DNA of 64,000 nucleotides from Moniliella sp. 'wahieum' (GCA_003971905.1 RSEE01000048.1:248001-312000), one strand, 5' to 3'. Positions 1,805 to 55,216 are shown, numbered from the stretch's first letter. Notes: generated by a model from the sequence alone, not told the origin. Translations and numbers: made by a program.

Positions 1805-1857
1805 TGATCGATGACCGGTGACCCGTGACCCGTGACCAGTGACATGTGACATGCGAC
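1805..1857. repeat. 7-bp periodic TGA-NNNN array (7 units) upstream of eIF2-beta
   Basis: tgatcga tgaccgg tgacccg tgacccg tgaccag tgacatg tgacatg cgac, read directly. Confidence 0.9.
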
Positions 1858-3792
1858 AGGGGACACTCCCCACTTAACCTCTGCCTCCTCAGCAGCTGTG
1901 GAGGGGCAACAGAGGGGGGTCGTTGGCCTGCGAGGGAGACTGATGTGCATACGTGACCCAGTCTTCGTAGATTCTTTTTCTCCAGATGGTGTGCTGTAGT
2001 TCACAGCAGCCGGGGATACTCTCTAGCAAGGAACAGGCGGTTGGCTCTTCGGAAGGGAAGGAGAGAAGAGAGTCTTGAGACGCACCAGCCCTGCTCTCCT
2101 TGTTTTGTGGTTGGTGTTTTTGCTAGTAATCCGGTGTCTTGTGGAATTGCGGGGTCGTAGAACGTCGAATCAAAGCAGTCGCCGATAAAACGAGGATGGT
2201 GGTAGATAGGTGTAATGATGCATCATACAGTACTTCTGTGGTCTATATAATAGTTTCTGGACAGGGTTGTAGTGGAGAAGAGGATGCAGGTCGAGGCTAC
2301 AATAAGGTAAGAGCAAATGTCCACTGGCACGGTGGTGGGGTACATAAGGGAGTTGATAACAGAAGGTAGACGAGTCCAACACGGTCTTATAATGGAGGAA
2401 CCATTACTATGGGGGGCGCCATATAAAGAAACAGAACGATGCAGCTTTTTTCACAGCCTGAGGGTGTGGTATATGAGGAAGAGGGAAACGGAGAGTCACA
2501 GGTAGCAGCATGCAATTATCCCCCAAAGGGGGATACCGAAAGACGAGAGGGGGGGGGGAATTGGATGCGCCGGAATGAAAACTTCTGATGGCGGTACAGT
2601 GAAGGATGAAAAAGGAGCAGGACGTGTGAAGAGAAAATGGGTCCGAGCTAATGCTCAAAGTAACTCCGGCGTGAGCGAATGGGATGTACGTTCCAACCGC
2701 TTTGAGAGCTTCTGATAGTGTTATACGCCATGGATCCTTGCGCGACGGTTGAAAGAGGCTATACAGTCGCGCCTGCGTCAGAGTGTCTGAGCCCATAACC
2801 GGAGCGTGAGGGGATGCTGCAGTGCATGCCCAACACGGACCACCGCCGTCATCAATGACCCCGAACATCAGGACTTTTGCTCCCCGTCTCTTCGCATTCG
2901 GTCTTTCTCCCTTTGCTCTGGCAACACCTCTTCTGTCTCTTAACTCCTCCTCCTGCATTCCCGCCTGACCACGGCCAAGTGTTGGTCGTAAGATTCGCCC
3001 TCTTGCGGTTGCCAGCAGGCAGGGTAGAAAGAATCTCGAACGGAATGTATCATCATTGTGTATGGGGTGGTGTATTTGACTTTTGTTGTGCGTGCACAAC
3101 CGCCCTCCTCCCTTCGGTTTTGTTATTCTGTTCAACACACAGTCAGTGTATATTCCTCTACTGATAACATGTGTACCTCGAGATACTGCGTCTACCGGCC
3201 TCGCCCATCCACTCAACTGTTCTGTTAATTCTCACTTGCTTCAAAAAGAAGCATCGATATATATGTTCCTTTTGTTTCGTCAAACACAACGTTGTCTCTT
3301 TCCCTTCCTGGATTGATTTTGTTTCCCATTTTCACCCGGATGGACATGCCTGTGTCCAACTTCGCCTGGTATACGAGCTAGCCATTATCCTAACCACCCT
3401 CTCTCGCGGTTGGCAATCACTGTGAAAGGGCTACGCCTGGCTACCTCCGCGTCCTCTCTATATTTGGGTCACTCCAGTGAAAAACGAAGTGAAATAGGAA
3501 TGCGATGGCGTGCGATAGGGACATGCTTACATCATGCATCATGTGGGCAAGGGGGCTGCTGGTGATGGATGATCCCAGGGGTGAGGCGCGTGTGCGCTCA
3601 GACAGTGTGTGCTCTGGGGCGACCGACAGGCTGGCTGGTGCGCGGGCCGCACGGCGCGCGTGTCCTGCGGTGGGTGCCGCTGGCTGACGACGCCCCTCGC
3701 AGCAGCTGCTGGTCGCTGCACCACGCCGACGCCATCACGCATCACGCTGCGCCCGCACCCTCACCGCCACACCAAACAGGAGCCCCCGTAAA

Positions 3793-3816
3793 ACGTTCAA
3801 CGTTCAACGTTCAACC
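3793..3816. repeat. (TCAACGT)n heptad array upstream of ATG18
   Basis: acgt tcaacgt tcaacgt tcaacc. Confidence 0.85.
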
Positions 3817-4024
3817 TCCATCCCGCTGCTATTGCGGCAATCTGCCCCTCCCCCCGCCACCGCCTCCACCTCCCCTCCCCCTCACCACCACCGCCACCGC
3901 TACCGTGGACGAGTGTCTGCTTCCTCGTGCCTCTCCCTACCGAGCAGAGTCCCAATCTCCCCGCCCTCCGCTCTTCTCTTCTCGCGCTTATCTTCGCCTC
4001 TCCCCGCCCGCCCCCCCACTCACC

Positions 4025-5532: not shown

Positions 5533-5637
5533 CTGGCGGTGGCCTTGCCGCTGCCGGCTGGGCAGGGACATTCGGCAGGGTGGGTTGGTTTGGCTCGGAG
5601 GCCCATGCGCCGTACTTGTCTGTTGCGATCCCTTTCC

Positions 5638-5660
5638 CGTTGCCGTTGCCGTTGCCGTTC
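5638..5660. repeat. (CGTTGC)n hexamer microsatellite in the ATG18 3' region
   Basis: cgttgccgttgccgttgccgttc. Confidence 0.7.
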
Positions 5661-6207
5661 CGGTGTGTGTGTGCGGCAACTTGTGCACCGTGTGCGTTGG
5701 GGGTGGACAGCGGGCTACGAGGGCAGGTCGTCGGGCACACGCTGCTTCGCTATGGATACACGTTTCACCTCTTTTGTGGACCGTAAGGGGGGAGGGGGAA
5801 GGAATGAAGAGTTGCTTGATCAAGAGAACCGGCGAGGCTGGACAGGCATTGATAAGAGGGAGGGGAGGTGTGGCTGATTGTGGGATGCTGGTCGGCTGGG
5901 GTACCCGGTGCCAGAGCAGGAGATGGCGTGTTGGTCGATGGTTGCGCCCACCTGTTTTGGTTTGAAACTCCGGCAGGCGGCCAGGGGCGCCACCACCGAT
6001 TGCTAGTTGCTGTGCGCCGAGCAAGAGGGCCGAGGGATGGGTTGGGCTAGCGAATGCTTTCGCTTCGCTTCGCTTCGCTCCCTGCGCGCTCGCTCCTCTG
6101 GCGTCGTCGTCCTGGCAGTGGGTCCCCCTTGGGTGCTGATTGGGATCACCCATGGCCACAGCACATCATGCACCATGCCCAGTCCCCCTCGGTCGATAAA
6201 CCCCGCG

Positions 6208-6396
6208 TCGCGCGTCACGCGTCACGCGTCACGCCGCCCGCGCACCCATGTGGGACACGCCGCCCGCCCCTCGTTTTGCGCACTGGGAATCAGGCACTAG
6301 GCAGGCGCTGGAAGCTTGACAGCCCGCCGCATTCAACGTTCAAACGTTCAATGTTCAACTTGAAAATTCAACATTCAATATTCAACCTCAATATTG
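6208..6396. repeat. Heptad arrays upstream of the bZIP gene: (TCACGCG)n and a mixed TCA-NNNN array
   Basis: TCA at 6215/6222/6229; TCA/TGA at 6333, 6340, 6348, 6355, 6361, 6368, 6375, 6382, 6388. Confidence 0.8.
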
Positions 6397-6993: not shown

Positions 6994-9054
6994 ATGGGTG
7001 TGTTTCTCTGCCCCCCCCCCCCGTGTTCCCGTCCGCTGACTCCTCCCCTCTCGCCCACCACCCGCTCCCGCGTGCGCTGTGTCCATGTCTGCGTCCCCCC
7101 CCCCGCCCCCGCCCCGCCCCCGCCCCCGCGCCTCCCCCAGCCTCGACCGACACCCCCCACGCGTCGCGCCTCGAACTCGAGCCCAATCCCTTCGAGGTCT
7201 CCTTCAAGCCCGCCTCCCGCCCCTCCCCCTCCCCCCAGCCCCTCCCGCTCCCTCCCACGGCCAGCCGCGCCGTCGCCCAAAACCACTCGCCCTGCCGCCT
7301 CCACCGCGCCACCTGCCTCCCCTCCTTCCAAGCCGCGTCCCACCTCCGACCACCCCGCCCCCGACACGTCCCCGCGCCCACACTCCGCCCCGCACCCGCA
7401 GGCGACCCGCCAAGCAGCTGCTGATCCTGAGCAGCCACAACCATCCTCTCATTCCCCCGTTCAGCCCGACCGCCAGCCCGCTACCCCGGCCCGTGGCAAG
7501 GGCGCCAACCCCGAGCCCGTCTCGGGCGGTGGCTCGGGAGCCAGTTCGGGCAGCGGCAGCGCGTCAGCTTCTGCCACAGGGTCCAGTGCTGCCAAGGCTT
7601 TGCCTGGAATCACTTCTCTCACCTCCCCGTCGGACGGAAGCAACCCTTTCAATTGGGTTACCTCGCTCCGTGATGGTCCGCTGAGTCCGGCGATGCTGGG
7701 TGCTCCCTCGTGTCCCAGCAAGGCTTTGACGTGTCGGCGTTCCGCACGGGCTTGACCCCGGACCTGTCCAACTTCAAGACGGGCCTCACTCCGCTTGGAT
7801 CCGGGGTGAGCATGCCTCCCCCAGTCCCAACACGGCCGCCTTCCTCGCCGTCGTCAACTCCAACAGCGCCGCCCACGTTCCCACAGGCACCGTGTCTGCG
7901 TCGGGCATGCTTGCCATACTGCGCCCCCGTCGCAGACGGGCGTGCCCGCCACCCTGACACCCAACACGATCAACGCCATCACCCAGGCGAGCAACTCGAT
8001 GCACAACAGCAGTGCCCACCCTACCGTAGCCCCCGCCCCATCGACGGAGGGATCGGCCGACTACTTTTCCGGCCGTGGTTCGGCCGCGTCGGCGACAGGC
8101 GAGCGTCCTGGATCGCGGCTGCGCAACTCGCTTGTACCCCCAGTTGTCACCGAGCCCGGACAGCAGCCCGCACCAGCTGCTGCTTCCCCCTCGCGCCCCG
8201 CGTCGCATGGTGGCGTTCCTGCGTCCGACCCCAACGTCGCCCACTCGGCCGCTTCGGGACTGTATTTGCTAAGCCAAGCGCACCATGAACTGACCAAGCG
8301 CGAGGGCAATACGGCCGCGGCCCAAGCTGCCGCCCACGCACTTCAATCGGTTCCGTACCCGTCTGCGCCGGAGACAGGCGGGAAACCCACTGGTCGCGCG
8401 GGGAGCAAGCGTACCAAGTCGACCGTTTCCGCGGAAGAAGGTGGGCAGAGACCAGTCCTGCATCTGCAGCTCGTGGGCGGGGCCGCGCTCGTCCCGCCGG
8501 TGGACGGAAGAAGGCTCGTGGGGACGCCAAGCCTGCCCCGCCTCCCGTCTCGGCGGCGGAGGAGGAGAGCGAGGACGATGCGCCTGGGTGCGCCCGAGGG
8601 CGCGACGGAAGAAGAGAAGCGCAAGAACTTTTTGGAGCGCAACCGTCAGGCGGCACTCAAGTGCCGCCAACGTAAGAAGGCCTGGCTGCAATCGCTCCAG
8701 CAAACGGTCGAAGGCTTACGCGGGGGAAAACGAGACGCTAAATCGACCGTGGAGATTTTACAGCAAGAAAGTGCGTATTTACGTGCGCAGCTGATTCCCA
8801 CTGCTGGTCCCGGTCCAGCCTCCCAGCCTCCGCCTTCCAACCCTTCGGCCCCTCCCGTTGCGCCTGCCCCAGCTGGCCTAACAGGCCCACCCTACGTCGG
8901 CGCCATGGCCAGGCCTTCCTTCCCGCCCCGATCCATGCCGGCCCACCCTGGCGCCGGGGCGGACTATGCCTATAACCCTATGCCTCCGCCGCCCGCTCCG
9001 AGCGGATTTGGGCAGCCCATGCCGCCGGTGAATGCGAAACGGATTGATGTGTAA
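6994..9054 (+). CDS. atf1: ATF/CREB-family bZIP transcription factor (Atf1/Sko1 type)
   Basis: Aft1_OSA motif SRLELEPNPFEVSF, Aft1_HRA SLRDGPLSPAML, Aft1_HRR RTGLTP..KTGLTPLGSG, bZIP basic region EEKRKNFLERNRQAALKCRQRKKAWL. 4-nt first coding exon ATGG, intron about 6998-7140. Several indels. Confidence 0.9.
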
Positions 9055-9699: not shown

Positions 9700-12600
9700 T
9701 GCTCTTTCTCCGGTCAGCCACTCGCTCCGCATGCTCATGCACCTGCTGGTGCTGCGCATGCGCGCGCGCCCGAGCGCGCTCCCGCTCTTCTTGCCTCCGC
9801 TGCATTTTCCTTGAGCGTCAGGGGGCGGCCCGCCATCGCAGTCGGTGCCGCAGTCCGTGGCCGCATCGGGGCCGCTCCCCCATCCGCATCGGCCGCATCC
9901 CGTCGGGGTCGCGGTCGAGGGCGGACTGGGCGTCGAGGCAGCTTCGGGACCCGCTGGAGCCAATGCTGCCCCTGCTCCTGCCCCGGCCTCGGCACCTGCA
10001 CCTGCACCTGACGGCGTCCCGACCGGACCCGGACCCTCACCCGACGGCGAAGGGGGCCCGGTCGGCCGGTCGGTCGCAGTGGGGGAAGTGGGAGCGGGGG
10101 CGGGGGCGGGGGGGGCGTCGGCACCGCAGGCGGTTGATCGTCGGCGCTCGGCGACGCGCGTTGAGTGTCGCCTATCGACCGCGATCCCGAGCCGAGCCCG
10201 ACCGCGCGCGCGCGCGCGGCGAGAGCGTTAAGGGGCTTCCGGGGCTCGTGGGCGCCGAGAGGGTGTGGGATAGCTCGGGGCTGCGCAGCGGAGGCCGAGA
10301 GAGTAGGCGGGTGCGACGCGAGGGCGACGGGGACGGCGTGCGCGGGCGGGGCGAGGGCGAAGCGCTAGGTGTGTGCGGAGGAAAGGCACCCGGGGGGCGA
10401 AGCCGAAGCCGAATGCGAAGGTGAAGGCGAAGTGGGCGAGGCCGCAGGCAGGGGCGCGGGCGATGCTGCGTCTTGTGCTGCGTCCCGTGCTGGACCGGAC
10501 CCACTCGGGCTGCCAGGTCTGGCGGTGGTCGCACCTGGCGCTGGCGCTGGGGCCGGGGCCACAGGGAGCGACCGTTCGTCCTGATCTACTGCTGTGACCG
10601 AGGGTTCCGCCTCTCCTTTGTCCAGCTCAACGGGGACCGGTTCGTCTGGCATTGGCCTCTCCTTTTCAGCTTGCTCCTTCTCGGCTTGCGCCTTTTCGGC
10701 TTGCTCCCTATCGGCTTGCTCCTTTGGGCTTGCTCCTTCTCGGCTTGCGCCTTTCGGCTTGCTCCCTATCGGCTTGCTCCTTTTGGGCTTGCTCCTTCTC
10801 GGCTTGCGCCTTTCGGCTTGCGCCTTTTCGGCTTGCTCCCTATCGGCTTGCTCCTTTTGGGCTTGCTCCTTCTCGGCTTGCTCCTTCTCGGCTTGCTCCT
10901 TCTCGGCTCGTTCCTTCGCAAGTTGCTCTTGCTCCAAACGTTCTTGTTCTAAACGCTCTTGTTCCAAACGCTCTTCTCCAAACGATCCCGCTCGGCCTGA
11001 TCTCGTTCAAGTCGTTCCATCTGCAAGCGGCCACGCTCCTTGCGCTCCTGTTCTTCCCGCTCCTTTTCCAAACGGAGCTGTTCAAGTCGGGCTTGTTCAC
11101 GGGCAGCTTGGATCCTCCGCTCCTCTTCCGCCCTCTGCTCAGCTTGGATCCGTTCCTGTTCGGCCTTGGCTTGGGCTTCCAAACGCTCCTGCTCGGCCTT
11201 TTGCTCAGCGGCAAGCCGTTGCTCTTCCGCCCTTCTCTCAGCCTCAATACGTTCCTCTTCGCTTTCCTCTCCGCCTCAATGCGCTCGGCTTCGCGTTGCC
11301 GAGCCTCTTCTTCCCTCCGGGCACGTTCCTGAGCTTCCTGTTCTTGTCGCCTTTGTTCCCGTTGCACCGCTTCGTGCCATACATACCTTGACCTGAGCCT
11401 GGATCGTGTAAGTGCTTGGCCAGCCTGCGTTTCGGCCTCCTGGAGCGCGTCGACCCAACTGGGGCCATCGCCAGCCAAAGGGAAGATGGCACTATACATC
11501 TTCCACAACCGCGGTGCCGAGGAGAGGCACCAGATTCGGACGAGGTGCGTGGCCAGGAGCGTGGTCACGGTTCCAGCAGGGGAGTGGGATTGGGTGGGTG
11601 GCCAAGATGCGCGGCCAGGGAACGGGACAGTGCATTCTTTCCCTCGCTTGACAAGCGGACCTGGGAAGACCCGCCCGAATCGAATCCAGAGCGAGGCGCA
11701 GAGCGTGTTCGAGCGCGGCGCGCGTGCCAGCAAACGTGCTGGTGGCGCATACGTGCCCAACACTTCCAACGCCTCCAAGACCGCATTGTGGTGCGCCGCC
11801 AACGGCGACTCGGCCAACGGCGCCAACGCCTCTTCTGCATCCGAAAGTGGCGGAAGCTCGCCCTGCTGCCACAATGGCGCAAGCCAGCTGGGCAACGCTT
11901 GCGCCTGCGCCACGTCCGTTTCCAGTCGTCGCTGGGCAGTTGTGAGTAACGTTTGGAAGAGCTTGCGCGGAGCTTGGGCCAGCGAGCCGGCTGCAATGCG
12001 AGGCAGAGGGTCGGCGCCGAGCGGGCGGAGCGGGACAGCAGCAAAACGGACGTGACGATGCAAGTCGGCCAAGAAGCCAGCGACTTCGAGCGCGGGACCG
12101 CAGGGTCGGGTGCGGCGAGGGCGGAACGGACGAGCGCCTTGACGTCCACCTCGACCCGATGCGCCACGTCGTTCGACACCACCTCCCCCAACGAGGAGAG
12201 AATGGCGCGCGAATGCACCCGTTCCGGTTCCGGGCCGTGTTCGAGGAAGAGGGAAAGGCCAAGCCGGAGCGCATTGGCACTGCTTTCGCGAAACGTGTCG
12301 ATGTACGCCCCGCACGCCGCTGCGCGGCCCGAGAGCGTCGAGTCGAGCAACGGCAATGCTTCCCACTTGGCCCGCAGCGCTGCATATTGCGTGCGGGAAT
12401 ACGCCAGACACAGCGCCGGCAGCGGCAATGAAGACTGCGAAGTGAATCGGCCAGCTGCGCCGCGCCGGGCGCCGGTGCATGTCCATCCACCGCCTCGGCC
12501 AACGCTTGGGTCGTGCTGCCCAACTGCGAGAGGGTGTGCAGCGCGCTGCGCGCACGCGCCAAGTAGGGCTAGGGCCCGTGATATGATGTACCAGCTGATC

Positions 12601-13371
12601 CTGTACTTCGCGCAGCGTCGCCACCACGTTGCCCGTCAGCGCCCGCAGCACCGCCGCTCCCACCACGCGATCCTGGTCCCCGCTGTCCTCACGGGGTGGA
12701 GCGCCTGCAGGCGGGGCGGAGGCCGTGGCGGGAGCGGTGGCAGCGAGCAGCTGGCCAGGTGGTGCGTCAGGCGCAGCGCCACATCCACCCGGCCCTGGTT
12801 CGCAGCCAGTCTACTACTAGCGCCGGAAGCTCGAGCAAGGGAGCGGCCTGGGCATCGGTGGCCACTGCCAGCTGGGCCAGCTGGCTGCGCTGGGAGATGG
12901 CCTCGGCCACAGGCGCACCAAATGCGGCGGCATGGGAGCGCAGGCGCGGGACCCGCGACGAAGCGTCCTGCACTGCTTCCTCGACTGCCGCCGCTGCGGT
13001 GGGCGCTGCCGAACGTGCCGCAGCAACGGCCGAGAAGGCACGGGCGTGGCGCACACACGCGGCGGCAGCGTGTGCCCGGGCCGCCGCCGACGCACTGGCC
13101 AGCGCGGCCGGGGACTCGATCGTGGCGGACAGCGGGCGGGTGGTGAGGGCAGCGAGGAAGGCGAGCGGCTGGCGGTCGGGCTCGGGGTGGGTCGGATGCG
13201 GACAGGGCCTGGGCCTGGCCAGGGATGGAGGGGTTAGCGGGCGCAGGAGGGGGGCTGGAGACGACGCACGATCTGGGCATAGGCAGCGGCATGGGCGGTG
13301 TCGTGGCGAGCGGCGTCGCTGGCTTCGCGCGCGATGAGGACAGCCAGCGGCGGGGCCTCGGCCACGGACAT
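9700..13371 (-). CDS. COG8: Conserved oligomeric Golgi complex subunit 8 (Dor1-like) with a long coiled-coil/repeat C-terminal extension; 3' end approximate
   Basis: ATG in accgccATG context at 13371, intron about 13270-13219. Dor1-like segments PLLELPALVVDW, GRVDVALRLTHHL, LCLAYSRTQY, AYIDTFRES, PLGADPLP, PLAAHHNAVLEALEVL across shifted frames, followed by an E/R/Q-rich coil and EKEQA repeats. Confidence 0.7.
10665..10980 (-). repeat. Coding 15-bp minisatellite encoding EKEQA/DREQA/EKAQA/QKEQA and LEQER pentapeptides
   Basis: Plus-strand unit of the form ggcttgctccttctc repeated roughly 15-20 times with higher-order blocks. Confidence 0.9.
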
Positions 13372-19096: not shown

Positions 19097-20175
19097 CGCG
19101 CCCAGAACCAACAGAGCTCAGAACCAGACGCAGCCACGAGCCACGGCGGATGGAAGCGGGAAAGAGTGTTAGGAAGATTAGATTGTCAGTGCACCATCGC
19201 TACTGTCACTCGCCCGCAGCAGCACAACGGTGCCCTCAACGTCTCAACCTCAACACGCAGCATCCGGCCACTGTTCCTGCGCCTGCTGCCCGCGCAATGC
19301 ACAATGGCCGTGTGGAGCAGCCACCGCACCATCACCCATTGCCCATCACCCATTCCACACGGCCATCCCTGCTGCACCAATCCATTCCGCATTCCGCCCC
19401 ACTGCCCCGCTTATTTACACCGACCCCACCCAGTCCTCACGCTACGCTCACCCCACAGTAGATACGCACACCAACCCGCGCCCCTGTCATGTGCCAAACG
19501 CCATGTGCAGCGCAGGAAGGATAGAGTGCACCGACCGACTGCCCCACCACCGTACCCGACTCTTTTCCCTTGCGCATCCACTCTTCTCACCATCACCACA
19601 CTTGAGCTGCGGGGAAATGCTTGCGCCATATGATGCGTTGATCCGCAGCGCTGGGGCCGGGTTGGAAACCCTCCATCACCAGAGATACAAGAAGAAAGAC
19701 GCTTGATGGCCCCAGAGGCGGCAATTGACATGACTCGGCCATCTGTGGGGGCTGAGCGTAAGAGTGCTCACCGGTCACCGTGCCACACACAGGATAGAGC
19801 TCCCGGACGGCCAACACGAGCGGGTCGTCCCAGCATTGTGGGAGGTCTTTTTGGGGGTTAGCGACATCGACAGTGAGGATCCAAAACAGAACCTGTGGCA
19901 CCGCAGCCTCGAACATGTTCGGAGTCTTTGGTGCCAGCCCAGCCACTTTTCACTCTCGTAATATGCCCTCGGCGCCGCGTCCTGCCAAATGAGGAGACCG
20001 CCCCAACAACCGCTGCGTTCACTTGACCACCGTCGCCTCGAATGGCCCTTTACCTCCATCATCGCTGGCTTTGGCTGCTGTTCACCCCGCTCGCTGTTGG
20101 TCCTTGACCTCTCTTTGTGCTTCTCCTCTGTTTCTCGGCAGAGACGAGCAGGACAGACGATCGACCACAAAAGGT

Positions 20176-20217
20176 TCAGCATTTAATATCCAACGTTCAT
20201 CTATCATCGATCATCGA
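20176..20217. repeat. Heptad array upstream of PP2A-A
   Basis: tcagcat ttaatat ccaacgt tcatcta tcatcga tcatcga (7-bp register). Confidence 0.7.
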
Positions 20218-22487: not shown

Positions 22488-23579
22488 AAATGATTGATTG
22501 GGGTGGCACATGGTGCATGGCACATGGCACGTGCCTTGCTTGCCCGCTTGTCCCCTCTCCCTTTCGTTTCCGCCGCCGTCTTTTGCCAGGACTTGGGGCT
22601 TCGGTTGCGCCAGAGCCGGCGCCGAGCGGGGCGAGCGGGGGGTAGGAGATTGCACGTGGAATCTACATAACCCGATCGGGATTGCGCGTGGGGACGAGGG
22701 TTGCTGCGGTGGAGCGTGCGGGCGCAGCGGTGCCAGAGGGTGGGACAGTTGTTGTAGGACCACTGAGTGCTGACTTGAACTACGGGTCAGCGGGCTCCCG
22801 CCTAGAGCCTACTACGCACCCCCGTGTCGCTGTCAGTGCCGCGCCAGAAGCTAGTATCGAAGGCACAGTCGGAACACAGCAGGCCTCCCAGGGGGTGTGC
22901 AAGTGAGGCCACGTGAGCGCGTGAGGCCTGAGGCACAGGAGGGTCGTGCGGGGCGCGGTGCGGGCGGCGAGGGAATGGGGCAAGGGAGGTGCCTAGAAGA
23001 CAGAGAGTCAACGTTCGGCTGAAGCGAATGCAGCGCATGTTGGTTGCCACCTTCGATCTGCGCCCGTGGGGGAAGGGCGGGGCAGGCGCCGAGGCAAGTG
23101 ACTACGACAGAGAGCGACGCAACGCAAAAACAAAACAAAGCCAAGCAAAACAACGCAGACCAGAGCAGGACGCCGCCACGCCATTGCTGGCTGCGGCCCT
23201 TGCGTCGCAGAAGCGGCTGCGATCGGTCCAGATTGCAACGATCCCAGCCTGGACGCGGTGGGTGGTGAGTGGTGCGTAGTGCGCAGGAGTTGAACGTTGC
23301 ATCACCCATCATACCCATTATGCATCATCGATCATCGTGCGATGGCAGGATGGCAGGCGCGCGCATCGGGAATGCTAATGCGCCCACGTGACGTCATCCA
23401 TTCCGGAGGGTGTTGCGAGCGGGAGCGCAGGGGCGGTGTGTGCTGCCCCACATGCCTGGCGCCGCACTGGGAGTGGAAAAGCGCGCAGGGCGGAATGCGC
23501 GGGCGGGCGGAAGCACGTGCGGCGTGCACCGCTGAGGCGCAGCACAACAGCCAGCGCGCCAGCACAGCCCTGGGCAAGG

Positions 23580-23607
23580 TGAACGGTGAACCATCAAGCT
23601 TCAAGTG
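23580..23607. repeat. Heptad array upstream of the zinc-finger-like gene
   Basis: tgaacgg tgaacca tcaagct tcaagtg. Confidence 0.7.
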
Positions 23608-23756
23608 TTGGGCAGTCACGTGATGGCCCGCTGGCGCGTGGCGGCTGCAGCGGGAATCAACAGCGGGTGGGCTCGGGTGGCCCGCAGGATGGGCGGCCAG
23701 CCCCCCGTCTTCCTTCTCCTCATCTGCCCGCGCTGCGCAGAGCCTTGGACAAGCCC

Positions 23757-28167: not shown

Positions 28168-28933
28168 GGCAAGAGAGCGAGGGAAGGTGGTGGGAGAGAA
28201 GCAGACGAGACGGGCCAGGCGACGTGGGGCTGGGATCGGACGACATGCCACCGCCCGACCCACCTGAGAATGTCCGTCGGCTGGTTCGGACCAGTTTCAG
28301 TTTGCTTGGCTTCCAGCTGCGCGCCTGGGCTCGCCCGCCGCCCTGGAAAAAAAGAAACTCCAGTGCCCACCTGGGGCCACGTGCCGGCCTGCTTAGGTAA
28401 GCCCTCGCGTCTTTCTCCGTCCCCACCGTACCCACTTGCAACTTCCACCCCCCCCCCTCTGGGCCACCGAATAGCACAGTGATAACCACAGTGGTTCACA
28501 ACATGATTACTATCACCCGGTTAGTCTTTCGTTGGTCGTAAGTGGACCTGTCGCCCTGGCTTTCCTTTTGTACCGCCGCCGTCCCACCCCACGACAAGGC
28601 AAAAGACTTCAATCTTCAAGCTTGAATCCTGGCTACGACAATCAACCGTCAAGGGGAGCGCTGGGTCAACACACGAGCTCATATGGCCAGCCGGGGAGTG
28701 CCAGCGACACCATTTGGATTAGGAAATGCATATGGGCCAGAAATATGCATAGTAGGGTCAACCATAGTCCCAGCGACTAGACTAGACTAGACAAAGATAT
28801 CCCCCGCGGGTGACAACGTCCCCAAGCCATAGAATTGGCAGGCGAGCACCCGTCATAAACCAAAGCAGGCTCCACAAGCGAGGTAGGAATGAGCTACAGA
28901 GGCTGCAACAAAGCCAAACGAGCCGACGCACGC

Positions 28934-29453: not shown

Positions 29454-29534
29454 CTTGAAGGAGTGCGTATGCGTGCTGGTCAGAGAAGAACGCGGTGGCA
29501 GGGGATGGTCTGGATGGAAACGCCGATGCAGATA

Positions 29535-29562: not shown

Positions 29563-29630
29563 GAATAGGTAAAATTAATCCCAGCACAGCGCTCCCTCCG
29601 AGCGGCAGCTGCGGGTGTTCCATTGCGCCA

Positions 29631-29651
29631 TCATGCATCACCGGTCACCCC
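29631..29651. repeat. Heptad array in the RPL35/FIST-like divergent promoter
   Basis: tcatgca tcaccgg tcacccc. Confidence 0.7.
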
Positions 29652-29871: not shown

Positions 29872-31419
29872 ATGCTCGTTCCTGTCCCCTGCGCGCGAGG
29901 CGCTGTGCATCGACTGGGGGCAGCGCGTTGGCTTGATATTAACCGACTGAGGGCATCAAAATACTTTCATTCTCATGCGTTCTCCATCTTTGGGAAGGAT
30001 GAAGGGCGGTTGATCGCCGAACTGCGCACGCAGTTGGACCAAGCTGCCAGTCAAGCCGTGCCGGCAAGGGGATGGACATTGCTATACACCCTCGATAAGC
30101 ATTTGTCCCCAGCACTTCTTCAAGAGGCGGTTACACTTCTTCGAACCACTACTACCATCCCTCAGATCCAGGCACGCGTAGGCGCTTTGACCAGTTCCTG
30201 GCCATCGTCAGCACTGCCTCCAGCCAGCCTCGCCGAGACGGAGAAGCAAGGCAACCTACCGTGCATATCGGTTTCCCTTCTTCCCGCCTGCTCTGCCATC
30301 GCGTTCCAATCGAAAATCAAAGGCAAGGCACCAATCGCTGTTGGGCGCTGGCAACCGCTTGATGTCCAACGGCAATGGTCCTCTGCTCCCTCTCGTCCCG
30401 AGCAGGGGGAGATCTGGGGCAAATCCAACCCAACTGTCTCGGTTCCATCCACCCTTGTCCCCTACATTGCCAATCCAAACACACCATCTCGAGTACTTGG
30501 TGCTCTGATTCTCTCCGATGCTGCTCCCAAGGATTGCTGGAGGGACTTGCATACCACTTTCCTACCGCTTGCCTCCTGGGACTTATCCTCCCACCCACGC
30601 CTTTTGAAACTGGCCGTGACCGTACCTTGTTCTACGATGGGCCCGGGGATCAGGGGACATCATTCACGAAACCTTTGACCAGGGGGCCGTTGGTGTAGCC
30701 CTTTTGGGGCCAGAGGAAAGTGGAGAGGCAGAGGGAGTTTCGGTGCTGGATGTGGAATCGGTCTATGCCAACTTGCATCCCATGGGGTCCCGTCAGACAT
30801 TGACAGGAGCCGAAGGAAACGTCATCTACCTTGGATGGGGAAAACGCTGTCGATCAATTCCGCAAAGCGATTGAAGCCCGTCCGATCAAGCGGCCAGACC
30901 ATGAATGTGTATTCCGCATCGGGGTCTACCTTCCAGACCAAAGCGTGCGTACCCCCGCCCTTGCTTTCTTTGCTCCCTTCCTTCCTTGCCTCCTTCATTA
31001 ACGTCTAGCGTGTTTGCTAACCCCGCTGTCTCTCCCAGGATCCCGCTGTGATGGCAACGATTGTTGGGGGCCAGTCGAGCCGCGGTGCCTTGCTGCTCAA
31101 TACGGATGCCAACTTGGGCCAACTGCTGCAACGTTCCTTCTTCCTCGGTCTCGATCCAATTCTTCCAAGAGGATCCCGATAGTAATCGGACGCCTGGGCC
31201 GCAAGACCTTCTGGCTCTGAAAAGGGGCAGACCCATGTTCTCTTTGCCAATCCGGGCTGCGAGGACGATGGACCGTCGACGCCTGGCGCGAGTGGTGACG
31301 TGGTGACTTGGAAAGACACGTTTGCTGCCGCCAGCCCCGAAGGTTGGTTCCAGTCCTATGCCACCAAGGTGCCAGGATCGGCCGTGTGGATGGGGTTGGG
31401 GCCAACGCCAAAGTCATAG
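29872..31419 (+). CDS. Uncharacterised fungal protein, FIST-domain-like, with possible mitochondrial presequence
   Basis: FQSKIKGKAPIAVGRW, LILSDAAPQGLLEGL...LLGLILPPTPFETGRDRTLF, GAEGNVI, SRGALLL. Arg-rich N-terminus; frames joined by indels and a probable intron at about 30947-31038. Confidence 0.5.
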
Positions 31420-31810
31420 ACAATTGAAAATGGTCAAGTTGACCTGTCGCATGTCACCCTAACCCAAGGCTGCTTGGTGGTCTTGGGTGCAATATATTGC
31501 TTGCATCATGCATCCTTGATGAAGAAGGACGTTATGGCTGTGTCCCCTCCTGAGGCCTCACCAGAGGGATCGGTCTGACCAGCAACGGACCGACGACCTG
31601 GGCCAGACGGACATGCTGGAGACCGGGGGGTTAGGGCGCCATGTGCGAGTCGGACTTGGCTGTCACTAGGTCGCTAGTAGTCTAAATTGCGTGTGATGTG
31701 GTATCACACTTCGTCACATGCCATTGTCATGTTGTCAGCCCAACAGGGAGCGATGGGCAAGTTGCTTAATTGGGCTCCCCTGTGCTTGGGCCGCGAGCGC
31801 GAGCAGGAGA

Positions 31811-31955
31811 CTTGAAGCTTGAAGCTTGAAGCTTGAAGCTCGAAACCGGAGAGGGTCAGCCAGTCAGCGGGAGATCTGGCCGCCTGTTGGCCTGAGCGCC
31901 TGGACGCCTAGCACCTGAGCACATGAACACCTGAGCACCTGAGCGCCTGAGCACC
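31811..31955. repeat. (TGAAGCT)4 heptad array followed by an 8-bp-period TGAGCRCC array
   Basis: TGA at 31813/31820/31827/31834; tgagcaca tgaacacc tgagcacc tgagcgcc tgagcacc at 31916-31955. Confidence 0.85.
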
Positions 31956-33502: not shown

Positions 33503-34069
33503 TTGATCCTTCCATTCTGGGCTTGAGCAAACTGTCCCGGGGGAATTTTGGCGTAAATATGTACACGAATGGACTTTCATGAATACCTTGGATGACCTCC
33601 TCCTCAGGCGTCAGCGTAAGACCTCAAGCTGAGGCCTTGGCTCAGGAGGCGTGGCTACAGCAACCCCAGGGAGGCAACGACCTGAAGGATGCCTTCATCC
33701 TGAGCCTCCAGCTATAGGAGCAACCCCACGTGCGGGTAAGGTGTAATACCTGGTCGATTGATCCATGTGCATGATCTAAGATCTAACGTCTAGCCTCCAA
33801 GCATGCGCAGTGTCGATCTCGGACGCGTCTCCCACGACGCAAGTGTTCGCCGCCCCACCTGCCCATTCACGCGATGACGTAACAAGCTCCTCCCACACTG
33901 GCGAGGTGGCACCCTGCCTGGGGGCAAGGTCACCGGCCACCTCAGTCACCTAGGCGCTCATCGTTCAGCCGGCCGCTTTCAGCATGCCTGGGGGCTGGGA
34001 GCTTAGCCACGCATCCAAAGCCTCTCATCGGGGCCAGCCCACCACCCTTCTCCTTCCCACCCATCATCG

Positions 34070-40406: not shown

Positions 40407-40481
40407 GTGACATGTGACATGCGACGAGAAGTATATGTGAGGCAATGAAGCTAGTGGCCGGTGACCGGTGACCGGTGACCT
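40407..40481. repeat. Heptad arrays (TGACATG)2 and (TGACCGG)n in a gene-poor region
   Basis: gtgacatgtgacatgcgac at 40407; tggccgg tgaccgg tgaccgg tgacc at 40455-40480. Confidence 0.8.
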
Positions 40482-40953
40482 GACCTATGGCCGACGTGTG
40501 GTTCGGTCGGAGTGAAGCTTGAGAAACCCTTTTGCAAAAAAAAGTGTGAGACAGTACGCCCCCACATTGACGAGGATATCGATACTGAACGTTCAGTTGA
40601 ACGTACTGCTGAACATATTGAATGCAGAGCTGGCCAGACCAGTACCAGGCCTTGTCTGGCCTCGTTGCCCTCCCTAGTGCGTACCCTCAGTTGCAGCGTC
40701 GTCCGCGTGGGCTGGCAGGTCGAGTGGAGGTCGACGTTCCACGGCGTCTTCTCTGTGCTTGCAATTTGTACTGCTCCACTGCAGATGCGGAGTTGGCATA
40801 TGGACTTGGGCGACGTAAAAGCGTAATATGTACATCTTTATCCCGACGGCGCTACACACCACCGCCAGAGTGGAGTTGTTGGCCCCCGCGTGGGTATGCG
40901 AGTGTGAGCAAGTCATGGAAGTGACATGTGGTACGCGCCGTTGCGAGAGCGGA

Positions 40954-40990
40954 TGATCGATGATCGATGATCAATATTCAATGATCAATG
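40954..40990. repeat. (TGATCGA)n heptad array
   Basis: tgatcga tgatcga tgatcaatattcaatgatcaa. Confidence 0.75.
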
Positions 40991-41855
40991 GTGCTCAGGC
41001 TGAGCCCCCGGGTGGGATCACCGGTCGGTCAGCCACTCTTTAGTCCGAACTAGTTCGCCCGGCCGAACAAGCTCTAAGCTGCAGCAGGCACCATGCCGCA
41101 GACGCTTGAGGAAGTCTGAGGTGGAAGTGTCTTTCTGTGCCCCAGTGCTCGAGCACATGATGCAGGGCACACAGGATCGACGCATCTGCAGAGCGCTTTG
41201 ACGCTCTGCAATGCCATCAGTCTCAGATCAGGGCCCTGTACGTTCACTAATTGAATACAGCCGTTTTCTGCCTCGCTCCAACGTCCAACGCACCGTGCAC
41301 TTGTTTGCGTAACGCAACGCGTGGCGGCAAAGGCATAAGGTGCTGCAGTTGGCCTGTTGGCGAGGGAATGGCCTGCGTCATGCATGTCATGCACCGTGCC
41401 TGTATGTAGCAGCGTAAGATCTAAGAGCTCCAGAACAGGCTACAAGCCAGAGCAGGCAAGATCAGCCACCAATCACACACATCACAGTGGCGCTGCCCTT
41501 GAATGAATGGGGGCGTTGGGGCGCCGGGGGTACCCGGCACATGTGCGGTACGCAGCATGTGGCCTCGGCCGCTCGCCCTCTGGAAAGCAGGCCGCGCACA
41601 GCAGGCACAGGCTGACTGTTCTATTTTTAATTTTAGTGTCACCGGTCATGCATCATGCAATGCAGCTTGTGGCTGCCAGGGCCTGGTGGTGAATGCAGCT
41701 ATTAGTAACTGTACGTGCCGTTGGCCCAGGGCCAGCCAGCCGATCTGTAGCATTCGATCTCGAATCTCACATGCCCACTCAGACTGAGGTGCCAAGTAGG
41801 ACTTGCTCAGTACTCGGTCCTCCCGCACTCAGGCCCAGGTACTTGGTTGGCGTCC

Positions 41856-41883
41856 TCAAGCGTCACGCGTCACGCGTCACGAC
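41856..41883. repeat. (TCACGCG)n heptad array upstream of the 42016 gene
   Basis: tcaagcg tcacgcg tcacgcg tcacgac. Confidence 0.8.
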
Positions 41884-42015
41884 TCGTACTCAGTCTGAGT
41901 TCTCACACGACCACGCTCTCCTTATCCTATCGATAGCGACTGGTGATTAACTAGTAGCTAGTCACGAGTCCCGACCGTTGATCAGTACTCAGTGTACCAG
42001 TACTCAGTGGCGGCC

Positions 42016-44323: not shown

Positions 44324-45381
44324 TGGACTTTGACAACATGCTCCTGACTGGGTCTTCCTTTCTTCTCGTCCCACATTTCTTCTCTTCAGCTCGGCCATCT
44401 TGATCCTCCCCTCCCCTCCTCCTCAACCTATGCATACGTTCATCACCCTACCCCTTTCCCTTCCATCTTCCTGGTCTGCCGATCTTATCGACAAGCAGCC
44501 TCTTGCATATTATCAAACTACCAGTGCATCTCGTACTACCCACAAGTCTCTCTCCTCTCTCTACCTGTGGAAGGAAACTAATCTGAATCTGTCGACCAAA
44601 CAATGGTCTTGTTCCAATAGCTTTTTTGTAAGTCATTGCAAGCCGTTGCATGCCCCCATCGTTGCATTGGATTGCTTTTGTAACGAGAAGCCGCGGATGG
44701 TGTACTGGCAATGACAAAAGAAGGCAGATACACGTGTGACACGATCTGCAGACTGCTGCGAGAGAAAGTAATCCTATGTGCAGGCATATGTGCTCTACGC
44801 TCACTTTCAGTTACGCGTTACGCGTTATATCGAGAGCCGTCGCGTCATGCAGAGCGCGTCATATGTGACGGTCGAGGAGTGTCGTGTTGGCGACGATTTT
44901 GTTGGAAAAAAGAGCGTAGCTTCCTGTATAGTAGGAGGCCGACAGTGCCCCCGACTACTCTAGTATAAGAGGATCACATATGTCACACAGGCAACGACCG
45001 GTTAGTACCTGGCTAACATATTGTCCTTGCTTGAAGCTTGACGTCAGTCAGAAGTCAGATCAGACACCGACCCCCACGGGTCCTGTCAGCGGGGAAAGCG
45101 TGAGGCTGTGTTGACGTTGAGGCTGTGTTGAGGCATGGGCATGCCGACTAGAGCGACTACAGTGACTAGTGAGCCAAATTAATGAGCGGTTGCTAGCAAG
45201 CGAGCTGAGTGCGCTGTGAACATGTGAACGTTGAACGTGCTGAGCGCTCGCTGAGCAGCGATTTGAACAAATCACAAGTTGAGCCTAGAGCCTAGCGCGT
45301 TGGGGCCCCGTCGTGTGAATCGGTTGAATTCCCAACGTTTAAAATTGAGCAACGACAGTTACTCGTAACGCTAGCCCAAAG

Positions 45382-46390: not shown

Positions 46391-47278
46391 TTTCTTTCTC
46401 TGGGGCCAAATGGCATCGGCCCTGTGGGGATGAATCTTACCTCCCCCCCTCCTCTCATCTACCACCTCCCCTCCTTGATTTTCTTTAATGTTTGGAGGAG
46501 ACAGGTCGCTGGCACCCTCTTTCACCAGTCACTTCCTGGCGTCTCCCACACACCTAGGATGAGTGTGTATCATAAGTACTTCCACAAGTCTATTCTAGTA
46601 GAATCGGGGACGCACAGGTCCAAAGATCGCTCACCGCTCGCCAACGTTCACCAACCACTCAGTACTCAGTTGGTGTTAATGCCATTGCATCAAAAAGGAC
46701 TGCTGTGATATGAAGGTGCGACTGCTGTTGTAGCTATCATAGTCGCTCTCTCCATTGCCGCCAACAAGGGGGCCGAGAGGGGGAATGCAAAACGCTGTGT
46801 GCATGACATTTACACATGGTGAAACTTGGCGAGGATGCCCCCAGACACCCATCCCCTCGCAAATAGCACAAAGGGAGAACGGAAGAACAGGGAACAGCAT
46901 ATCCGCCCTGCATTGTCGAGTTCGAGGCGCGTTTCGTTTTGGATGGGGCTTGGACGTGGGGTCGCGCTTTCGAGATGGACGATCCACCCCCCGTTCGGCA
47001 CGCGCAGCAGCTGCTACGAGGGGCCGAACGGGGCTGGCCAATTCCGCGCTAGCCCAATAGTAATATTGCAAGCGAACAGCGGAATGCCCCCAGCTGTATA
47101 ATATGCTGGCACAGCCAGGCAGCACGAGGGCAGTGCGTTTCCGACCCCCTCAATAACACTGGCGCTGTGCGTCTAAGCGCTGTGCTGGCTGGCGCGGCAG
47201 CTTCTTCGCTCGTAGCAGCTGGGCAGCTCCAGCTCCCAAGGGGCGGTTAGCGTTGTCCTGCTCTGCTCGACCACCGAC

Positions 47279-51357: not shown

Positions 51358-54054
51358 GGTGAGAGCTGGGGGGTGAATGAGTGAGGAAAGGTGTGAATCC
51401 CGACGGGTGAAGACACAATCAGGTTGCCCGGGAACAGTTCAAAGGCGCCACCGAAACGAACGTGCTCAACGGACGCGGCAGACACGGGCAGGGGTAAGGT
51501 AGTGGAAGCACGCCAAGCCCAATGCGGATGGCGCCGAGCGAACTGGTTCTTGTGACCTGCCAGTTGGGTTGAGCTACGAACATTTCGATTTTGCCAAGCG
51601 AAATTTCAGCTGTCCATCGTCGAATGATTTTTTCTTCAGCTGTTTGTGCACTGGAGGGAGCTAGCCCAAAAAGTGTATTTCATTATGGAGATGGAGCAAA
51701 CCCCGGAACGCCGGAGAAGGAGCTGCTTCTGCTGCTGCTTGAACAAGCAGAATGCGACAAGAACGCCAAGTACCAGGGACGCACCCAAGAGCCGTTTTCC
51801 CCCTTGGTTTTGACGACACGACTAGGATACTACGGAACCAAGACAGCGGGCAAGTTGTTTGCGCATTGGAAGGAGTTGGCTACTAAGTCTCAGTGGAAAT
51901 GGTTCCTTGCTCGGATGTCACCACGTTCATCCGTGTCCACGCGCGCATACCTAGGGTACGGGACCGGATGGCGAAACCGGAGGGTCCTGGTATCATGGCG
52001 GTCCCCATGGCTCCTTAACCTTGGTGGCACTTCCAAGTAACCCCACTAGATGAACGGTTAGACGTAGCGTTCCCCCCTGTCCCAGCCTTAAGCTCTGTCA
52101 ATGAAATGGACGCAACATAAATGGACAACCGTGTCTCATCGCTCAAACACAATATCTAGTATACCACGCTCACTCGTATACACTCACAGTACATTCAGTT
52201 TGGAAACGAATGGGGAGCCAGAGAGTCCTGAGCTGCGGACGATACCGTTGGCTCCTGATGGGTTAACGAACTGACAGCACCTCTTCCAGGCTGTGTTTCT
52301 TTTTGCGAGCCCTCGGTATAGGCGCGCAGCGTTTCTTGTCACCGCGCGTGAAGTGTTTATCGCAAAAGTATGAATACCTGTCTGTATCGACAGTAGACAG
52401 ATGATAAAAATGAAGACCAACGTGATGAATAACGCATCAAGCAACAATCATCATCGTATATATCAAAAAGAGGTGTAGAACTCTTCTCACCCTTCGATAC
52501 TATCTCTATTCAAGGTCTTCTTCGAGCGCCAAACATTTTGTCGTTTTTTTTTCCCCAGGAAGCGGGCGGAGGTGTTGGCGTACACCTCGTCAGGGATAGC
52601 GCGTGTATATATAGGTAACTCGACTTTTGCGCTCGAAGTAGAAAACCTTCAGGCCCTCTGCTGGTTCCCACCGCCGACAATGAGAGTGGTGCGCACGACC
52701 TTGATTGACGGCGTGCTGGCGAAGGTCATGGCGGTAGGCAGGCCGCTCGTGCCTTCCTCATTGCCCTTGGCCAGAACCACGCATTGCGTTTTAAGAACTG
52801 ATTTTCCGGGGTGACCCCGATGGCGCCGACGCCAGTGTACACAGTATGCACTGCCAAGAGCGTCCTGACCTGCCGGCTACGCCATTGGCCTCCTGATTAG
52901 GTTTGGGCGCGGGCTGTCAGTAAACGAAGGATGTGGGAGATCCTCTCGTAGGCAAAATGCTGTTCCCAGGCTCTTGTTGCTAAGTTATTATGCAAATCCT
53001 CTATGTACTGTATTCTGTTTAAAGTCGTTTTTGTATAGGCCGCCAGAAGGGAGGATATGACCCAAAGAAAGGTCAAGGAATGATAGAAGAGTACTACATT
53101 GAGAGGAGCGATACGAAACGTGCAAGCGAGACGAGAACGAAGAAGTGAGAGAAACTAAGACATAAGTTTTCGGCTCAGCCTGAGTGTTGGCGCTGGCGTT
53201 TTGACTGTGTATATGGAAGGCAGCAGATACCCCAACAACTGTGGATTGTGGAGAACAGCGGGGATAAAAGTCCTTCTGTGGCCCGCCCGGTGGCTGACGT
53301 GCTGAGCGGCTGAGGCGCACTGACCGCAGTACTCAGGTATAAAGAGGGTCGGTGGAGATCAGTGGTTCCCCACCGCGACCAACACAGGGGTGTGTGGGGA
53401 GTATATCCCCACAGGGCACCGCGCCGACCGCGGCAGGGGTGGGCCCTTACCGAGAGAGTGGCGCCTGTCTGTGGCGTGGGGAGTCAACAACCAACGGGCA
53501 AAAAGTTTGTCGGTTGCCCCGGTGACTTTCTGCCTGAGCGCTAGGCCCTGTGGCAGCGCCGCGCTCAGCTGAGCGCTGAGCACTGGTGCCATCCGCGCAC
53601 GGCGGACATCAGTACTCGCAACACGTGCCGCGTCATGCATATGCAAAACTGTTGGGCTCTCTGAAATACATCATGCACATGCATCAGCATATCATAGTGT
53701 CTTCGCTCTTGGACACAGCGTTCTTCGCGCACCAGCGGCCGTTCATGACGTTCATGGAACGACCATCCCGTCATCGACTGCGGTCATACCGGTCATACTA
53801 CGCCTTAGATCTGAGACCTTATAGGCCGCGACCTTCAGCCTCCCGGCAGCATGAGTCATCGCAGGGTTCACGTGTGTTCATGCCGTCTCGCAGCGGCCGC
53901 GGCAGCGGTCCATGACTGTCTTAGATGCGGATGTTGTACGGAGGCGCAGTGCCAGTATCGAGCATCCCTTTCACCTGAATCCGGGGCCCCCAATACCCCT
54001 CAGACAACGGGGTTGGCGCTGGCTGGCACCCGAGCGCATGACAACAGAACGCTT

Positions 54055-54090
54055 GGAAGCTTGAAGCTTGAAGCTTGACATGTGACAATT
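54055..54090. repeat. Mixed heptad array in the long region upstream of CaMK
   Basis: tgaagct tgaagct tgacatg tgacaat (TGA at 54062/54069/54076/54083). Confidence 0.85.
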
Positions 54091-55216
54091 GTGCATGCGC
54101 AGGCAGGAACAGGCGCAGCATAGCTTCCAGTCGCTCTCCCTATCTCCACGTAAAAAAGAAATATAATGCGCGGGCCTGCCAGCTATTACTTCTCTGTCAC
54201 ATGTCACGCTACTATATACGCCACGCATCATGTGCATCATGCCTCATGCGAGCGACACCACGGTGTAGCTCAGCCTGAGCGCTGAGCCTCAGTAGGTCTT
54301 CAAGCTTCAGGTTCAAAGACAGTCGCCTTGAACCCCTCCCCACAGTCCCCTCCGCGCGTTATCCAGAGACATACACCCGAGATACTGGGAATGCATCCCA
54401 TCATCGGCCACCATCAGCACCATCATCCATCAGATCACCAATAGAACACCTGGCCACGGATCAACGCATCCACCAAGTAACAAGCGCTTACGGGTTACCT
54501 GTTACCGAGCGAGTGTTTAACATTCATTTGCGCCCTGCGCGTGGATCAGGTGGGTAAGAGCGCCCCCGCCATAGAGCGCGAGAAGCCATATTTTCCCTAA
54601 TTGACTGAGAAAGCATCACAGAAGAACAAGTGACCGAGAGAAGCTATGACGCGCGCAACGTTGTGGACGTGATTGCACTACGCTATTGACGCTGTTGAAC
54701 GTGTTTCGAACGTAGTACTGCGAACATGGCTGGGTTGTACGTGTTGAATGCTCAAGCTGAGTCTTGACACTCATGAGACACTCTTGAGCCGCCGGGCTTT
54801 GGTTCAAGTGTTTTCAAGCCCGATCGAGGTAATGAGCGCATGACTTTACGTTAAGACCGTGACATCGGTGGTTACACAGATATTGCCTGTGGGATGTGTA
54901 CCCAACGCAAACAACGAACACAACTCGCCCCTTGATGCATGATGCCTCTCTCTGCCCCTCGCGGAACCAAAGCCCTGGTAAGCCCTGGCAGCCAACCCAC
55001 ATATCTTGGCCCTATATACTGTCTGTGCCCCTGTATATGCTCTCAACCAGAGAGATATATACATCGTGCACAGCTCTCCAACCCCTGACTGAGAACCACC
55101 ACCACCTTGAAGCCCGTTACCCTCTACACACAACCTTCCCCCCCATCACACCGTATCCCTCTCAAGCCAACATCTCACAGCCACCCACTTTCCTCTTTGC
55201 CCCTACACATACCAAA

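Follow-up and report, generated by a model that had tools for sequence, protein, structure and literature searches.

Footprints carrying palindromic (P) nucleotides are textbook knowledge, and the hairpin-opening nuclease Artemis prefers to cut two bases 3' of the tip. Enzymes of the hAT, Transib, RAG and MULE groups form hairpins on the flanks of the mobilized DNA, which are opened by host enzymes and joined by non-homologous end joining, as outlined in the relevant portion of PMC5499845. According to the sections of PMC5873905 on footprint repair, P-nucleotide footprints occur in fungal hosts as well, ligase IV can join ends without microhomology, the Artemis relative Pso2 cleaves hairpins in yeast, and the palindromes in hAT (Ac/Ds) footprints are centred on the complement of the element-adjacent base. 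Basidiomycete DNA transposons with 7-bp duplications are represented, in an excerpt of PMC12730594, by hAT7 of the Pucciniales (rust fungi) and Kyakuja of the Agaricomycotina (Laccaria). Here we describe a 7-bp pattern in a 64-kb stretch of DNA from Moniliella sp. 'wahieum' (GCA_003971905.1 RSEE01000048.1:248001-312000; the whole analysed stretch is referred to below as the window), which has 59.8% G+C and reads as eukaryotic DNA with short introns and ordinary fungal genes. The pattern consists of TNA, a 4-bp palindrome and an identical TNA, either single or in arrays. These arrays are probably the repair scars of hairpin-capped double-strand breaks at 7-bp staggered, T-N-A-centred sites, which would most likely have arisen by repeated insertion and excision of a cut-and-paste transposon with a 7-bp target-site duplication, abTNAxy.

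Counts and controls confirmed that the pattern in the window is real. A first-pass annotation of this DNA had reported arrays with TGA or TCA recurring every 7 bp at 16 positions, and the pattern was present at 16 of 16. The expression (T[CG]A.{4}){3,} gave 16 matches, compared to 1.4 ± 1.2 (maximum 7) in 200 dinucleotide shuffles. Autocorrelation of the TSA triplet in non-coding-like DNA had a single sharp peak at lag 7 (92 versus approximately 20-50 at other lags), with minor bumps at lags 14 and 21, and this peak was absent from coding-like DNA (17). The wording "TSA every 7 bp" was replaced by the sharper rule given above: a palindromic spacer was found in 49 of the 92 TNA-4-same-TNA words (53%) against an expected 6%, with the 15 other triplet classes, defined by their outer bases, ranging from 0 to 18%. 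In comparison to the 49 TNA-palindrome-TNA words in the window, 100 shuffles contained 2.0 ± 1.6. The words are held by 35 loci, approximately one per 2 kb, of which 24 are single and the other 11 contain two or three junctions. Thirteen different palindromic cores are represented, and the central N is G in 23 words, C in 22, and A and T in two each. The description of the units as A-NNNN-T palindromes joined by one base, also made from the first inspection, holds.

An outside control consisted of 124 metagenome loci chosen for (TGA-N4)x5 arrays. Palindromic cores are not general to TGA-containing heptamer repeats, because 112 of these 124 loci had none; in the pooled TNA-4-TNA words of the control, the spacer was palindromic in 49 of 1,660 (3%). 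The few control loci with palindromic cores include three GC-rich ones (L061, L088 and L092), which are uninformative. The entire L061 contig (1-4563) is one inverted repeat about position 2540, probably an assembly artefact, and bears a short TGA lattice with two palindromic cores.

The minimal event consists of five directly repeated bases (TNAxy) and a two-base inverted copy of xy, a structure seen at 21 of the 24 single loci. In 17 of the singles, only one flank has its first two bases beyond TNA identical to the adjacent palindrome half; in four both flanks do, and in three neither does (chance, 1/16 per side). Since the match is mostly one-sided, the event has to be written as TNAxy + y'x' + TNAxy, or its mirror image, and not as a copy of a whole 7-base unit. 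In TNAxy-2-TNAxy words counted on both strands, the filler was the reverse complement of xy in 63 of 86, whereas the other triplet classes combined stayed at chance level (30 of 504). The template of the filler lies distal to TNA in 63 words and proximal to it in nine, eight of these nine being ambiguous, which makes TNA the symmetry centre of the event. Among 57 words of the type TNA-palindrome-TMA, the second triplet had the identical N in 49, its complement in five and another base in three; the triplet is therefore copied rather than being an independent site. Alternative fillers were scarce (0 nt in six words, 1 nt in five, 3 nt in two and a double P insert in two), and near-cognate targets (TNG/CNA) carried the signature in 7 of 56 words, which is not clearly above chance. 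Non-palindromic TNA-7-TNA words that retain the flank match differ from a palindrome by one pair in 13 of 18 cases, against 40% expected, and many of these differences are CpG transitions.

The size and one-sidedness of the event bear directly on the idea that these are ordinary heptamer microsatellites, grown by slipped-strand hairpins in self-complementary units. Arrays of three to five identical units do exist, their strands can self-pair, and slippage probably contributes to the growth of the long arrays. However, such an origin is very unlikely, given that 17 of the 24 minimal events are 5 + 2 structures with a one-sided 2-nt extension and not whole-unit copies, that the pattern is specific to TNA, that the cores vary within a fixed register, and that nine-tenths of the control heptamer arrays (the 112 mentioned above) are free of palindromic cores. 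Moreover, snap-back priming should not be able to produce a 2-nt inverted copy without a loop, while P-nucleotide chemistry suggests that such a copy is the product of a covalently closed hairpin nicked off-centre. As the 5 + 2 structure would mark a closed hairpin opened two bases off its tip, the arrays appear to be neither a protein-binding code nor plain slippage. The earlier statement that slippage of a single microsatellite does not account for a constant register with a changing core was upheld. Of the three origins proposed at that stage, a hairpin-driven mutational process came closest, with the correction that the hairpin implied here is the closed end of a double-strand break and not a slipped-strand hairpin in a repeat.

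The other two proposals, a promoter code of phased TGA half-sites and a nucleosome or methylation signal, found no support as the origin of the arrays, because each palindrome opens with the dinucleotide that follows TNA in the flank and closes with the inverted copy of that dinucleotide. What determines the core is hence the neighbouring sequence, with no shared motif involved. Selection for such a cis-regulatory grammar would be consistent with the loci being promoter-side, non-coding and frequently a few hundred bases or less from a start codon, and with the creation of hexamer palindromes of the type bound by dimeric factors. Against it stand the 13 different cores, each set by its own flank, the decay of units by point mutation and the lack of any common sequence beyond TNA, so we regard it as extremely improbable, although transcription factors may make secondary use of the newly formed palindromes.

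The sequence rule can be accounted for by the following scheme of hairpin-capped breaks. Insertion of the element would duplicate the target abTNAxy as 7 bp; upon its departure, a perfect hairpin would close each flank precisely where the element had ended. A host nuclease would then open each hairpin two bases 3' of the tip, or three, the product being identical in the latter case because T and A are complementary. The 3' overhangs left by the opening would be 4 nt long and self-complementary, with xyy'x' at one flank and b'a'ab at the second, and each 3' end would be ligated, untrimmed, to the recessed 5' end of the opposite flank. The resulting heteroduplex would have abTNAxy-y'x'-TNAxy in the top strand and encode abTNA-b'a'-abTNAxy in the bottom strand, of which replication or mismatch repair would fix one of the two mirror forms. 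The lattices would result from repeated hits and later point mutations, often at CpG, together with some slippage, whereby the register is kept and the core changes; an additional core in one lattice would need a point mutation in xy followed by a new event. Events would be retained only in non-coding DNA, concentrated on the promoter side.

In this symmetric scheme, the net gain equals the duplication length at any opening offset, which would explain the constant +7. The scheme predicts similar numbers of the two mirror forms, and 11 and 6 were counted among the singles. Moreover, one target hit twice should give two cores in register, with both products of the mirror pair side by side. Two places fit this exactly: the two-core locus at 29631..29647 (CA-TCA-TGCA-TCA-CCGG-TCA-CC), with an inferred target CATCACC, and the left end of the locus at 1805, which reads GA-TGA-TC-GA-TGA-CC-GG-TGA-CC.

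The same hairpin origin could be combined with a 5-bp duplication (TNAxy) of the RAG/Transib type, if two P-nucleotides were added on one flank only. The direct repeat is indeed 5 nt and the filler 2 nt, even palindromes would fit a nick exactly at the element border, and RAG, RAG-like and Transib enzymes make 5-bp duplications by nicking and hairpin formation, as described in a portion of bioRxiv 10.1101/2023.08.20.553239. The placement of the P-nucleotides argues against this variant: they lie at the TNA-distal end in 63 words versus a single unambiguous one, which needs a fixed asymmetry, and few words have P additions of another length (0, 1 or 3 nt) or on both sides. If the two hairpins were opened in the same way and joined by direct ligation, a 5-bp duplication should add 5 bp instead of 7. 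Finally, Transib is missing from fungi according to the part of the survey in PMC5751038 that covers it. Overall, the 5-bp variant seems improbable.

A canonical hAT element, with its 8-bp duplication, should leave other footprints. In fungi such elements are common, and their footprints carry P-nucleotides (PMC5873905, in its passages on footprints); our derivation indicates that an 8-bp duplication with one base per flank leaving together with the element would, after direct ligation, also give a net +7. Under the 8-bp model, however, the direct repeat should be 4 nt long, the palindrome odd and one base complemented; none of this was seen. The scars have even palindromes and a 5-nt direct repeat, their filler inverts the flank exactly, with no base at the centre, and N is retained in the second triplet of 49 words and complemented in that of five. 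This explanation can be considered highly unlikely.

The position of the loci relative to genes was assessed with a crude codon model, which classed 45% of the window as coding-like. Such DNA holds three of the 35 loci and 32 lie outside it (binomial p = 4e-6); the three are the one at 59103, probably a chance hit, and those at 19768 and 44811, where the codon-model calls are borderline. Gaps of at least 250 nt between coding-like segments were sorted by the orientation of their neighbours. The nine divergent (-+) gaps, 16.0 kb in length, contain 22 loci and the 15 tandem (++) gaps, 13.9 kb, contain 12, whereas no locus was found in the nine convergent (+-) gaps (10.4 kb, overstated as non-coding length since some gaps contain weakly scoring exons, e.g., those of the low-complexity zinc-finger gene at 24.5-26.2 kb) or in the three tandem (--) gaps (1.4 kb). 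Promoter-bearing gaps thus have 34 loci and convergent, terminator-only gaps none, which is notable even with the overstated length. The non-coding location upstream of genes, as reported in the first-pass annotation, was borne out by these counts. The promoter-side bias fits insertion into open promoter chromatin or selective retention; a function is not required.

This distribution, and the lack of an element within the window, would also be in agreement with a host nuclease or a domesticated transposase of the Kat1 type making hairpin-capped breaks at TNA in open promoter chromatin, with no mobile element involved. Domesticated hAT transposases that make hairpin-capped breaks are known in yeasts, as described in part of PMC4763223. 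However, a simple break has no 5-7 bp target duplication, so that staggered cuts with fill-in or a prior integration would be needed, and no candidate gene was seen in the window. We consider a purely host-made origin rather improbable. More broadly, the scars could reflect a novel DNA-breaking activity that cuts T-N-A-centred sites with a 7-bp stagger and forms hairpins exactly at the border, belonging either to a new transposon lineage or to a domesticated transposase and writing hexamer palindromes such as ACGCGT, ACCGGT and AAGCTT into the promoters of a compact, repeat-poor genome; we put this forward as a tentative and somewhat doubtful proposal.

Several results weigh against the proposed transposon scars. 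No transposase was found in the window by a Pfam search of 300 of the 302 open reading frames (ORFs) of at least 100 aa. A repeat search of the window returned only low-complexity families and no dispersed repeat, and inverted ends beside 5-, 7-, 8- or 9-bp direct repeats were present in the window only as chance-level pairs that span genes. The Ustilaginomycotina are described as compact and repeat-poor in the corresponding part of PMC5751038. At the level of the scars themselves, the outer flanks match on both sides in 9 of the 11 multi-copy arrays, and approximately seven of those nine are single-core, which implies a palindromic original target (y'x'TNAxy) at a frequency far above the expected 1 in 16. 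We assume that the identical cohesive overhangs of palindromic targets may ease repair and repeated growth, to which slippage may add. In one-sided singles, the opposite flank matches one of the two bases in 8 of 11 cases versus 4.4 expected. Plain TNA-centred 7-bp duplications, for which the scheme leaves room as well, make up 2 of 10 isolated runs and are not clearly enriched, and the suggestion of a 7-bp stagger comes only from the symmetry and the constant length of the events.

The only relevant Pfam match was a marginal zf-BED hit of 20.8 bits versus a cut-off of 20.6. It lies at 23590-24651, within a long, proline/serine-rich ORF (23590-26245) that has one C2H2/BED-like zinc finger and no DDE core. 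This ORF is the zinc-finger gene named in the first inspection; it encodes a low-complexity, one-finger protein and is not a hAT element. A footprint built of transposon-end bases (a TNA duplication plus 2 nt per inverted end) was also considered and rejected, as the core follows the flank.

The simplest loci are singles of the form TNAxy + y'x' + TNAxy, such as TCACC+GG+TCACC at 19768..19777, TGAGG+CC+TGAGG at 22922..22931, TCATC+GA+TCATC at 23325..23334, TAAGA+TC+TAAGA at 41415..41424, TCAGT+AC+TCAGT at 41982..41991, TGAGC+GC+TGAGC at 54276..54285 and TGATG+CA+TGATG at 54933..54942. The mirror form is represented by the singles at 45032..45041 (CT-TGA-AG-CT-TGA), 45163..45172 (AG-TGA-CT-AG-TGA), 54197..54206 (TG-TCA-CA-TG-TCA) and 54300..54309 (CT-TCA-AG-CT-TCA). 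At 3532..3541, the single TCA-TGCA-TCA has matching flanks on both sides and an inferred palindromic target CATCATG; palindromic targets are likewise suggested for the singles at 46659..46668 (ACTCAGT) and 53570..53579 (GCTGAGC). Another single, TAA-GATC-TAA, is located at 33777..33786, and at 23578..23607 a direct duplication of GGTGAAC (x2) is followed by the single TCAAG+CT+TCAAG. Two occurrences are without a flank match, TGA-AGCT-TGA at 40513..40522 and TGA-CCGG-TGA at 59103..59112, the latter within the RabGAP-TBC reading frame.

Regular arrays are formed by (TCAACGT)x3 at 3792..3817, (TGAAGCT)x4.9 at 31811..31844, (TGACCGG)x3 at 40462..40478, TGAACGT x2 at 45225..45234, (TTACGCG)x2.6 at 44811..44827 and (TCACGCG)x3 both at 41856..41883 and at 6204..6235, where a decayed TCG unit lies to the left. 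Changes of core within one register are seen at 40954..40980, with (TGATCGA)x2 and then TCA-ATAT-TCA, and at the two-core loci 41639..41655 (TCA-CCGG-TCA-TGCA-TCA) and 54062..54085 ((TGAAGCT)x2, then TGA-CATG-TGA). Four further loci are lattices. The one at 1805..1860 has approximately seven TGA units with the cores TCGA, CCGG, CCCG, CCCG, CCAG, CATG and CATG and ends in the triplet CGA; the degenerate TCA lattice at 6332..6388 uses the cores ACGT, ATGT, ACAT and ATAT and has a one-base indel; the lattice at 20176..20217 has a degenerate start at 20176 and a clean part at 20197-20217 (TCATCTA TCATCGA TCATCGA); and the degenerate lattice at 28607..28629 contains the 10-bp palindrome TCAAGCTTGA.

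The scar TGACA+TG+TGACA at 40408..40417 lies within a recurring motif, TGACATGCGAC, of which there are three exact copies, at 1847-1860, 31443-31456 (minus strand) and 40415-40425. With up to one mismatch, the motif has seven matches versus 1.35 expected, and two of the copies extend to 14 shared bases, TGACATGCGACAGG. It may be a real promoter motif. Its TGA carries the 7-bp scar at 1840 and 40408 and is unduplicated at 31446, so that the unduplicated TGACATGCGACAGG copy (31443-31456) beside two duplicated copies offers a paralogous before-and-after view, the only hint of an ancestral site. A perfect 14-base palindrome, ACTGAACGTTCAGT, is present at 40584-40597 and has the form expected from a hairpin on the target ACTGAAC opened 7 bases off the tip. 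The hexamer ACGCGT is repeated in three of the arrays (6204-6235, 41856-41883 and 44811-44827); we take it to be the MluI cell-cycle box bound by MBF in yeasts, the correspondence here being a match of sequence.

Besides the loci, the same set of ORFs gave Pfam matches to eIF2-beta, PROPPIN (Atg18-like), bZIP/Aft1-HRA, PP2A subunit A, ribosomal protein L35 (L29 family), Sac1, SNRNP27, ATP synthase delta, SRP14, a protein kinase, RabGAP and an alpha/beta hydrolase. For one ORF of the window, Tilletiaria anomala provides the closest named protein (79% identity), and two other assemblies reach 88% and 83%, which places the organism among the relatives of Tilletiaria (Ustilaginomycotina). A tRNA-Gly(GCC) gene is located at 31293-31367 between two protein-coding genes, near the scar loci 31502 and 31813. 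The 15-base tandem repeat CTCCTTCTCGGCTTG at 10659-10984, with approximately 17 copies and a 59-base super-period, is placed at the end of a long ORF of the minus strand (10843-12810), which lacks a Pfam family and may encode a repetitive protein segment. In the minus-strand ORF 26785-28296, an HbpS-like haem-degrading domain is combined with a "putative phosphatase" (PHOSPHO-type HAD) domain, and both domains are present in its two closest relatives. C-rich tracts of CCCCGCCCC-type low complexity occur on the coding strand near gene starts (3845-3905, 7095-7257 and 23785-23828) and are unrelated to the 7-base lattice.

No description of TNA-centred 7-bp palindromic scars in a fungal genome was found in the open-access literature that was searched. 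What sets the present case apart is the density and strict stereotypy of the scars, their T-N-A centre, the even palindromes together with the putative 7-bp stagger, and their occurrence in a repeat-poor genome with no element in the window. If the proposed origin is correct, a fungal genome that seems nearly free of transposons would carry a dense record of hit-and-run transposition. The scars would then reveal the chemistry of the enzyme, i.e., a 7-bp stagger, an exact-border hairpin and an opening two bases from the tip, a combination that matches no well-studied hairpin-forming superfamily, and would define precisely what to look for when tracing the element or enzyme behind them. They would also allow hairpin opening and end joining to be studied in a basidiomycete as a natural experiment, and could represent a mechanism that steadily creates palindromic promoter motifs, as a source of potential sites for dimeric factors and of cis-regulatory change. 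In practical terms, such arrays should be annotated neither as regulatory motifs nor as ordinary microsatellites.

Compared to known systems, the scars share the general features of flank-hairpin transposon footprints: both copies of the duplication are kept and the filler is an inverted copy of the flank. They resemble the products of RAG, RAG-like and Transib enzymes and the coding joints of V(D)J recombination in having even-length P-nucleotide inverted copies, as from an exact-border hairpin opened a couple of bases off the tip. V(D)J joints, however, are variable in length, while the scars here are stereotyped. The duplication of these enzymes is 5 bp, and the 5-nt repeat would fit it, whereas a length of 7 bp is suggested by the constant +7 and by the central position of TNA; the fixed side of the P-nucleotides and the constant length likewise favour a symmetric 7-bp target.

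The footprints of Ac/Ds and other hAT elements in plants, budding yeast and Candida albicans are similar in combining target duplications with short palindromic P-nucleotide inserts (PMC5873905, same passages). They differ in their complement-centred palindromes, 8-bp duplications and heterogeneity, as opposed to the even 4-mers, the absence of a complemented base and the 7-bp unit found here; judged by sequence, the scars are not hAT-like in chemistry. hAT7 and Kyakuja agree with the present case in phylum and in the proposed duplication length, but they are reported from other subphyla, no copy is present in the window, and the excerpt of PMC12730594 describes neither a TNA preference nor footprints for them. 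Moreover, hAT7 would be expected to leave odd palindromes of the hAT type, unlike the even ones in Moniliella. The domesticated hAT transposase Kat1 of Kluyveromyces lactis is, like the activity proposed here, fungal and makes hairpin-capped breaks that are repaired by the host. Kat1, however, acts at one locus in mating-type switching and makes no target duplication, whereas the scars described here are many, lie on the promoter side of genes and retain a duplicated target.

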